Below, one piece after another: positions 116 to 313 of a stretch of 1,053 nt of DNA. The position numbers and the translations under genes were made by a program. Where the stretch lies: assembly GCF_003334385.1 (NCBI RefSeq), contig NZ_QOWN01000131.1; one strand, written 5' to 3'. The notes beneath the pieces are model-generated. The model was not told where the DNA came from. It ran no database searches and saw only the letters and a list, made by a program, of their open reading frames with translations. Each line of letters begins with the position of its first letter. Position 1 is the stretch's first letter. This DNA comes from Escherichia coli. GTDB taxonomy: Bacteria > Pseudomonadota > Gammaproteobacteria > Enterobacterales > Enterobacteriaceae.

Positions 116-313
116 ATGCTGAAACAGCAGGATATGACCGAAACCGCCAGAGTGGTGTTTAATGAATTAAGTGCCACCGAACCGGCGACAGTCGGGGAGA
201 TTGCGCAGAATACTTACCTTTCACGTGAACGCTGCCAGTTAATACTGACCCAGCTTGTTATGGCGGGGCTGGCAGACTATCAGTTCGGTTGTTACAGACG
301 CCTTCAGTCCTGA
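116..313 (+). CDS. Small hypothetical protein, 65 aa, putative winged-helix DNA-binding protein
   Basis: ATG 116 with SD-like AAGGGA 7 nt upstream; stop TGA 311-313. Translation: MLKQQDMTETARVVFNELSATEPATVGEIAQNTYLSRERCQLILTQLVMAGLADYQFGCYRRLQS. The pattern (T-x-x-EIA ... hydrophobic helix LILTQLVMAGL ... aromatic/basic tail) resembles small wHTH regulators such as MarR-like or PapI/FaeA-like proteins; this is pattern-based inference, not a database hit. Frame 2 is open from the window start, so the ORF track's GTG 29 or a start outside the window cannot be excluded; ATG 134 is another in-frame alternative. Confidence 0.55.
   Translation: MLKQQDMTETARVVFNELSATEPATVGEIAQNTYLSRERCQLILTQLVMAGLADYQFGCYRRLQS

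Follow-up and report, generated by a model that had tools for sequence, protein, structure and literature searches.

A small winged-helix gene and a structured leader RNA ahead of an M.EcoGII-type adenine methylase in a lambdoid prophage of Escherichia coli

A stretch of 1,053 nucleotides (nt) of Escherichia coli DNA (assembly GCF_003334385.1, contig NZ_QOWN01000131.1; "the window" below means this whole stretch) is part of a lambdoid prophage and holds, in this order, a small gene with a predicted winged-helix product, a structured leader RNA of about 165 nt and the beginning of a DNA adenine methylase gene assigned to the M.EcoGII family. We found that the small open reading frame (ORF) is maintained by purifying selection, that it keeps a fixed distance to the methylase gene from Escherichia to Providencia, and that the RNA between the two folds into six helices, one of which buries the region directly 5′ of the methylase start codon. 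That the small protein is a cassette-specific regulator of this toxic methylase, at whatever level, is a real possibility, although short of an even chance; within that proposal, action on RNA and action on DNA are about equally likely, and we favor the leader RNA as the target. The two genes and the initiation signal of the first are located as follows.

Positions 105 to 108, + strand: Shine-Dalgarno-like GGGA, 7 nt 5′ of the ATG at 116; homologues have AAGG or GAGG at the equivalent site.
Positions 116 to 313, + strand: gene for a 65-amino-acid protein predicted to be a single winged-helix domain (PHROG 331; RefSeq WP_000917743; phiP27 L23; Sakai ECs_1779).
Positions 464 to 1053, + strand: 5′ part (196 codons) of the gene for a 352-amino-acid β-class N6-adenine DNA methyltransferase of the M.EcoGII family; the ORF continues past the window.

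The small ORF runs on the + strand from the ATG at 116 to the TGA at 311–313 and encodes 65 amino acids; RefSeq annotates the same ORF as WP_000917743 in an E. coli chromosome that is 100% identical here. Across 17 homologous loci, the proportion of synonymous differences (pS) was 0.6–0.9, near saturation, and that of nonsynonymous differences (pN) was 0.03–0.38, with a ratio of nonsynonymous to synonymous rates (dN/dS) of 0.05–0.42 where computable. These sequence comparisons confirmed a real gene under purifying selection rather than a chance ORF. Its start is marked by the conserved N-terminus MLKQQDMTE. A preliminary description of this DNA had named a longer frame entering from upstream as a threat to its account of the gene; that frame, beginning at GTG 29 or further 5′, is excluded, given that 17 of the 29 distinct homologous loci have no start codon before the conserved Met and that most of those 17 have a stop codon that ends the frame within some 12 codons. 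The protein family is narrow, with 343 clusters at 90% identity and 66 representatives at 50% out of 1.8 billion, many of them fragments; its members come from Escherichia, Shigella, Salmonella, Klebsiella, Citrobacter, Kluyvera, Buttiauxella, Mixta, Erwinia, Proteus and Providencia. The neighborhood of the Erwinia member (locus L021; 47% over 43 residues) was uninformative.

Subsequently, we modeled the protein with AlphaFold2 on a 17-sequence alignment. The model reached a mean pLDDT of 92.3 and a pTM of 0.80, with helix H1 at residues 9–16, a β-bridge at 24, helix H2 at 26–33, helix H3 at 37–49 and a β-hairpin at 53–56/59–62 (these helices are called protein H1 to H3 below, as distinct from those of the RNA). 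With this H1-S1-H2-H3-S2-W1-S3 topology, the product is confidently predicted to be a compact stand-alone winged helix, and the compact winged helix-turn-helix (wHTH) fold and helix assignments of the preliminary description hold up, as the modeled helices match and both the Pfam matches and the structural neighbors are of the wHTH kind. The Pfam matches themselves were marginal: TrmB (PF01978; 1.3e-3, 19.0 bits), MarR_2, HTH_24, DprA_WH and Rrf2. Among 17 relatives, TrmB reached E ≤ 0.001 in only 2, and more of them scored better with DprA_WH. No NCBIfam model reached its cut-off for the small protein, a PDB sequence search returned nothing significant, and one PDB match, 8vd6, was discounted as a designed repeat of which only a short HTH-like stretch was matched. 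Structural neighbors of the model comprised MarR/ArsR/BlaI regulators, Zα domains and the RNA-binding winged helices of SelB. The Zα signature consists of Asn/Tyr in helix 3 and Pro-Pro-x-Trp in the wing; despite high similarity of fold, the small protein lacks these contact residues. Invariant residues are T8, L44, T45, Q46 and G51, most of which lie in the very hydrophobic protein H3 (CQLILTQLVMAGL), and of the two cysteines in the window's protein, C40 and C59, only C40 is near-invariant.

The protein thus modeled is a new family within a known fold, with marginal likeness to the TrmB-N, MarR and DprA-WH profiles. What is already known is a name, "TrmB family transcriptional regulator", given by NCBI to some members, whereas full-length TrmB carries a C-terminal effector/sugar-binding domain and the present protein is a winged helix only, of 65 amino acids. 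PHROG 331 is annotated as "unknown function", our literature search found ECs1779 and ECs1780 mentioned in no paper, and the proteins tested in the portion we used of a study on the RNA-bound proteome of enterohemorrhagic E. coli were others. The function of the protein is undescribed.

Furthermore, the gene lies directly upstream of the methyltransferase, as the preliminary description had it, and this pairing is conserved. The gap from the end of the small gene to the methylase start at 464 is 150 nt. Among 19 genomes representing species from Escherichia to Providencia, 15 had the methylase start 340–349 nt past the start of the small ORF. The fixed spacing recurs in at least 10 genera, whether the preceding gene is one of at least two unrelated Q types or, as in phiP27, encodes a GIY-YIG nuclease. 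Scanning viral contigs with a leader motif, which recovered mostly Proteus and Providencia phages, yielded 44 true leader loci; both partners were present in 43, and the 44th ends at a contig end. A second scan with a looser motif of variable gap yielded 119 loci. Of these, 96 contained both genes, 5 ran into contig ends and 12 looked like chance matches; 3 had the leader and the methylase without the small ORF, and another 3, identical to one another, had the small ORF and a truncated leader without the methylase. The association is strong, at about 95% of loci, but not absolute. In Stx2c phages, megablast homology to the window begins only at 333, yet a divergent allele of the small ORF is present; there the pN was 0.08 for the methylase versus 0.34 for the small protein, indicating that recombination swapped the allele and did not remove the gene.

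M.EcoGII is in wide use as a tool for chromatin footprinting and RNA methylation. The methylase of the window carries a DPPY motif at residues 35–38, a homologue (locus L022) has FMGSGST in its C-terminal part, where enzymes of this type carry an FxGxG motif, and the matches were to phage DNA-methyltransferase PHROGs, to NCBIfam methyltransferase models and, among PDB relatives, to the β-class enzymes RsrI, CcrM and MboIIA. The window is 97% identical to phage 1720a-02, and this phage encodes an enzyme "very similar" to M.EcoGII according to the M.EcoGII paper (PMC5778455); for these two reasons we treated the neighbor as an M.EcoGII-type, presumably non-specific adenine methylase. The same paper reports that M.EcoGII and M.EcoGI are prophage genes silent in the lysogen, that M.EcoGII is fully active and non-specific on its own, and that its overexpression harms growth (PMC5778455).

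Between the genes, positions 296–463 were conserved beyond either ORF, with 67–91% identity where synonymous sites are saturated. This region is a structured leader RNA of about 165 nt on the + strand, composed of six helices.

Positions 300 to 323, + strand: hairpin P0 (GCCUUCA/UGAAGGC, 300–317) with a U6 tract, terminator-like in the terminator scan and present in the minimum-free-energy (MFE) fold.
Positions 335 to 381, + strand: helix H1 (AUGGG 335–339 / CUCAU 377–381), enclosing hairpin P1 (341–352 / 360–371).
Positions 388 to 463, + strand: long-range helix H2, pairing GGAUCACAAGCA (388–399) with GGCUUAAUGAUCC (451–463) and enclosing H3 and P4.
Positions 406 to 412 with 434 to 440, and 413 to 431, + strand: helix H3 and hairpin P4, respectively, both inside H2.

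RNAalifold, two independent MFE folds and explicit pair counts agreed on one shared architecture. The MFE z-scores were −4.2 for the E. coli leader and −2.7 for that of Providencia, with the same helices, and H2 appeared independently in both folds. In 43 distinct leaders, 85.7% of cells were paired versus 28–47% in a control in which the partners were slid, and 15 pairs had changed on both sides, mostly in P0 (double changes in four of the six counted pairs), P1 and H2 (five covarying pairs, 88% of cells paired). The many G·U pairs assign the structure to RNA of the + strand. They also bear on the palindromes at 341–371 and 413–431, which had earlier been raised as candidate DNA operators for the small protein: these are the hairpins P1 and P4 of the leader, and the operator idea is not supported, because the two arms change in concert and include G·U pairs that would be mismatched in DNA read on the other strand. 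A UGGGC/GCCCA helix closing a three-way junction was dropped, as RNAalifold, the MFE folds and the pair counts favored H1 plus H3. The Rfam search found no family in the leader; over 6900–10100 of the reference locus L001 (described below), it returned at E ≤ 1 only tRNA genes and weak matches overlapping tRNAs. The leader RNA appears to be undescribed so far.

The part of this structure that bears most directly on the methylase is H2, which joins GGAUCAC..AAGC to GCUU..UGAUC and stops one base short of the methylase AUG. The 13 nt directly 5′ of that AUG are buried in H2, and there is no GGAGG before it. The 3′ end of 16S rRNA is GAUCACCUCCUUA; UGAUC could be a weak, correctly spaced contact for the ribosome, and GAUCAC could be its mimic. 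An alternative helix, P3 (373–382/392–401), was 73% paired with three covarying pairs; it cannot form together with H1 and H2, and this covarying competitor suggests that the leader may alternate between two folds. From the alignments we also read a possible third pairing of 326–331 with 391–396, (C/U)UGUG(A/G) with UCAC(A/G)(A/G), which would compete with H2 for its 5′ strand as an anti-anti-Shine-Dalgarno. Directly 5′ of the methylase AUG, a GATC (Dam site) at 457–460 was invariant in 43 of 43 distinct leaders, and inside H2 it pairs with G(A/G)UC at 389–392. An invariant AUG at 335–337 is unlikely to start a leader peptide, the length and sequence of which are not conserved: its ORF reads MGGWWVL and a stop in many enterics, spans 33 amino acids in the window, and begins MGDCKSV in Proteus.

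The position of the cassette was read from a reference neighborhood, locus L001 of strain EC2, in which window position 1 is position 8001. The order there is a DUF968 gene, a RusA gene, a Q-type antitermination gene ending 111 nt 5′ of the window, the 198-nt small ORF, the 352-amino-acid methyltransferase, tRNA-Ile, tRNA-Arg and lysis genes, and the layout is identical in phiP27 and in Sakai prophage Sp9 (ECs_1779/ECs_1780). The terminator scan placed a strong terminator (CCCGCCGCCTGGCGGG followed by T6) with its end 14 nt 5′ of the window. In lambda and Stx phages, the constitutive late terminator tR′ is overridden by Q (PMC7547250), and by analogy the terminator here would be a tR′ equivalent subject to the same override. 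As the first ORF after the Q gene and its terminator, the small ORF is the first ORF of the late operon. Between Q and the terminator, TTGATT-16-TAAATT, seen by eye and below the promoter-scan threshold, resembles lambda PR′; together with the terminator (L001 7894–7993), it would give a short constitutive RNA placed like lambda 6S RNA and StxS. In phiP27, Q and the cassette are separated by a GIY-YIG nuclease gene (L002 6653–7882); fusions of a winged helix (wH) with GIY-YIG are nucleases dependent on N6-methyladenine (m6A) (PMC11037411).

We propose regulation on four grounds: a toxic methylase with a masked start and no GGAGG, a well-initiated gene directly upstream that shares its late transcript, selection for keeping the pair together, and the precedent of phage Mu. 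With the cassette ordered as small wHTH gene, leader RNA and methylase at the head of the late operon, events might run as follows. In the lysogen, there would be little transcription past the upstream terminator or terminators, and a stray transcript would give no methylase, H2 burying the GGAGG-less start region. Upon induction, Q-modified RNA polymerase would read through the terminator, and the small protein would build up from the well-translated first gene. It could then bind the control region of its own cassette through the invariant surface of protein H3 (CQLILTQL), in our favored version at the leader RNA or alternatively at a conserved 5′ DNA element at 54–91, and would thereby alter leader folding or occupancy so that the methylase is translated only past a threshold. 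Every binding step in this scheme, and its direction, be it activation or repression, is inferred. In its most specific form, an RNA-binding translational switch acting on a leader that masks the methylase start by an anti-Shine-Dalgarno-like GAUCAC/UGAUC helix, the reading is tentative and, taken alone, unlikely.

The logic would be that of Mu com/mom, built from unrelated parts. Com, a small protein of Mu, switches on translation of mom (PMC6483171); Mu-like prophages carry com homologues ahead of non-specific adenine methylases, and putative Com sites were reported at the 5′ end of hin1523 (PMC3299994). The window shares with com-mom and with the Mu-like com/methylase pairs (hin1523, hia5, nma1821) a gene of about 62–65 codons directly upstream of a cytotoxic, late-made enzyme of broad adenine-modifying specificity, a translation start of that enzyme masked by mRNA structure, and evasion of host restriction as the purpose (PMC3299994, PMC6483171, PMC5778455). 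It differs in that Com is a four-cysteine zinc finger and the present protein is a winged helix with at most two cysteines, one of them near-invariant; moreover, the leader here has six helices over about 165 nt, the gap is 150 nt, the host element is lambdoid, and RNA binding is only proposed. The cassette is thus a new variant of the design that couples a small regulator to a toxic DNA-modification enzyme. If the RNA-switch reading were true, it would explain the silence of the native M.EcoGII gene in lysogens, a silence on which the M.EcoGII paper offers only the observation (PMC5778455). It would also represent a second, independently evolved answer to the Mu/Com problem of confining a host-toxic, genome-wide modification to a doomed cell, and would add a new RNA motif and perhaps show the winged helix put to a new use, in binding RNA or protein.

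Several observations weigh against regulation of the methylase by the small protein. Most family members are acidic, with a pI of 4.8–5.1, the allele of Stx2c phages (pI 9.2) being the exception. The basic/aromatic tail of the preliminary description did not survive comparison, as it is not conserved and the proteins of Proteus and Providencia end in IKENIKENTFQNI. The wing varies even in charge (ADYQFGCYRRLQS, IKENIKENTFQNI, AKDNGGYGNKFRRCQ) and in some clades is devoid of basic residues. A linker-fused homodimer modeled with AlphaFold2 reached a pTM of 0.49 without a confident interface, which is weak negative evidence and argues against a classical dimeric operator binder. The leader sequences belong to a small number of clades, which limits how many independent covariation events they can represent. 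In three loci (L083 3758–3952, L093 275–469 and L150 1702–1896), the wHTH gene is missing while leader and methylase are intact; the small protein is therefore not obligatory in cis, and because these three lie in unrelated upstream contexts, the leader-methylase unit can move alone. Conversely, L145, L151 and L172 (identical to one another, with a small ORF of 95% identity), L011 and L016 hold the small ORF without the methylase; in such loci the leader breaks off after P1 or H1, with other DNA in place of the methylase, and they may be decay remnants or cases of independent use of the protein. Finally, synteny alone could reflect inheritance as one mobile block, and the data allow a function of the small protein unrelated to the methylase. 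Four of these points keep our confidence low: the acidity of the family, the variability of the wing, the failure to predict a dimer and the leader-methylase units without the gene.

The same features bear on whether the small protein acts only on DNA, as a transcription factor that binds the 5′ element or some other phage or host promoter while the leader functions independently.

Positions 54 to 91, + strand: conserved element CTTGCTG-N13-CAAGAGTTAT-TGGTGTGTCAC, 5′ of the small ORF.

Small bacterial wHTH proteins mostly regulate by binding DNA, and the nearest folds to this one are MarR/ArsR/BlaI repressors. The element, with the consensus YTTGMTG-N13-CAGAGTTAY-N-TGTRTGT from Escherichia to Providencia, was found in all clades with the small ORF and was absent from the three leader-methylase loci without it, so that it goes with the wHTH gene and not with the methylase. 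It is either a signal in the 5′ untranslated region of the small ORF or a weak, activator-dependent promoter; the resemblance to a promoter that might need an activator (TTGCTG-17-TAYNNG) would suit a DNA-level factor. As a sigma-70 promoter it is poor (TTGCTG-17-TATTGG, three of six matches in each hexamer), and the promoter scan called no sigma-70 promoter before either the small gene or the methylase. It also shows no dyad symmetry, no dimer was confidently predicted, and the recognition helix is invariant while the palindromes, as candidate operators, vary by covariation. An acidic pI, a variable wing, an invariant hydrophobic protein H3 and no predicted dimer are an unusual combination for a DNA-binding wHTH. 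Compared with MarR, ArsR, TrmB-N and BlaI, the protein is a bare 65-residue domain without dimerization helices or a ligand domain, and its Pfam matches are marginal. Action at the DNA level alone is also unlikely, with a share of its own that is counted within the regulator proposal; were the protein just a small repressor of the usual kind, the finding would be routine.

Like the C proteins of restriction-modification systems, the small protein is encoded next to a DNA methyltransferase and would serve to time a dangerous enzyme; C proteins, by contrast, have an Xre-type five-helix HTH, bind C-boxes as dimers and regulate an endonuclease. Neither the small protein nor its 17 relatives matched HTH_3 or HTH_31 in Pfam, the fold is a winged helix, and no endonuclease gene is adjacent, the neighbors being the Q antiterminator, the methylase (an orphan), tRNAs and lysis genes; the earlier judgment that this is not an Xre-type C protein was therefore sound. 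The suggested analogy with PapI/FaeA was not supported: these are likewise small stand-alone winged helices tied to adenine-methylation biology, but PF04703 was absent from the Pfam matches (E ≤ 10 for the query, E ≤ 0.1 for 17 members), and PapI partners Lrp at the Dam sites in fimbrial operons, whereas the small gene here is a phage late gene.

Another possibility is that the protein is a partner of the methylase or a binder of m6A-DNA, acting in trans as a DNA-binding or dimerization domain or as an m6A reader that modulates the enzyme or marks or shields modified phage DNA. Many of the top Foldseek matches were N-terminal winged helices of methyltransferases dependent on S-adenosylmethionine (DsyB, RedM, PigF), and the same domains were the best matches with a significant single matched stretch in a PDB profile search. 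DprA_WH was the commonest Pfam family among the relatives (7 of 17 at E ≤ 0.001). Reading of m6A by prokaryotic wH domains is well established (PMC11037411), and the invariant protein H3 is unusually hydrophobic. Against this stand the activity and non-specificity of M.EcoGII on its own (PMC5778455), the free swapping of small-protein alleles on one methylase background, and the absence of a DpnI-type wH match, whether in PDB sequences at E ≤ 10, in Pfam or within the top 50–60 structural matches. We regard such a role as quite unlikely.

The order of the genes and their initiation signals would suit an antidote as well: made ahead of the methylase from the first gene, the small protein would inhibit a host type IV (Mrr-like) nuclease that cuts phage DNA once it carries m6A. 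The ribosome-binding site of the small ORF is unmasked and that of the methylase masked, an acidic protein with an invariant hydrophobic surface would suit a conserved host protein as its target, and the small ORF is retained in some loci without the methylase. Cloning of M.EcoGII reportedly required a host tolerant of methylation. This case is purely circumstantial, however, as those loci are possibly decay products, and the protein has no likeness to known anti-restriction families; PADLOC, a defense-system search, gave marginal matches only, none of them notable. An antidote function therefore seems very doubtful.

In addition, hairpin P0 overlaps the end of the small gene, whose stop codon (311–313) lies in the 3′ arm of this terminator-like structure, ahead of U6. 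P0 is the 5′ hairpin of the leader module, and its retention in the three loci without the small ORF assigns it to the leader. Ribosomes finishing the small ORF would melt P0, and translation could interfere with termination there. It is conceivable on this basis that the act of translation is all that matters, with ribosomes at the stop preventing termination or remodeling the leader and the peptide itself being functionless; the spacing to the leader is indeed fixed. Strong purifying selection across the whole protein, its confidently predicted fold and the invariant protein H3, unexpected for a mere leader peptide, speak against this, as do the presence of P0 without the ORF in three loci and the lack of P0 in the leaders of Proteus and Providencia. 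We consider it highly improbable. A strong U-tract after P0 was seen only in the E. coli/phiP27 clade.

The cassette is common. At least 80% of the window was present in 1911 of 5426 complete E. coli genomes (about 35%), in up to 8 places per genome, often in several prophages and in some cases beside Shiga-toxin genes. Several E. coli chromosomes carry a prophage region 100% identical to all 1053 bases; identity was 95–97% to Stx2-converting phages and phage 1720a-02 and 89% to phiP27. One locus with the enterobacterial prophage cassette, L009 (CACSKA010000005.1), is titled Chryseobacterium sp. 18061, an assembly that is probably mislabeled or contaminated.

Two smaller features of the window complete the list of its parts.

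Positions 25 to 32, + strand: Chi site GCTGGTGG; a second, in the same orientation, follows at 342–349.
Positions 473 to 490, + strand: small hairpin ACUG/CAGU just inside the methylase coding region; it is 97% paired and almost invariant, and hence weak evidence of structure.

The perfect Chi sequence occurs at 25–32 and 342–349, that is, twice against 0.06 expected, a count reached in 1 of 200 shuffles; lambdoid phages rich in Chi are already on record (PMC12315714). The second Chi forms the 5′ arm of hairpin P1, and most Proteus and Providencia leaders keep the hairpin but not the Chi sequence.

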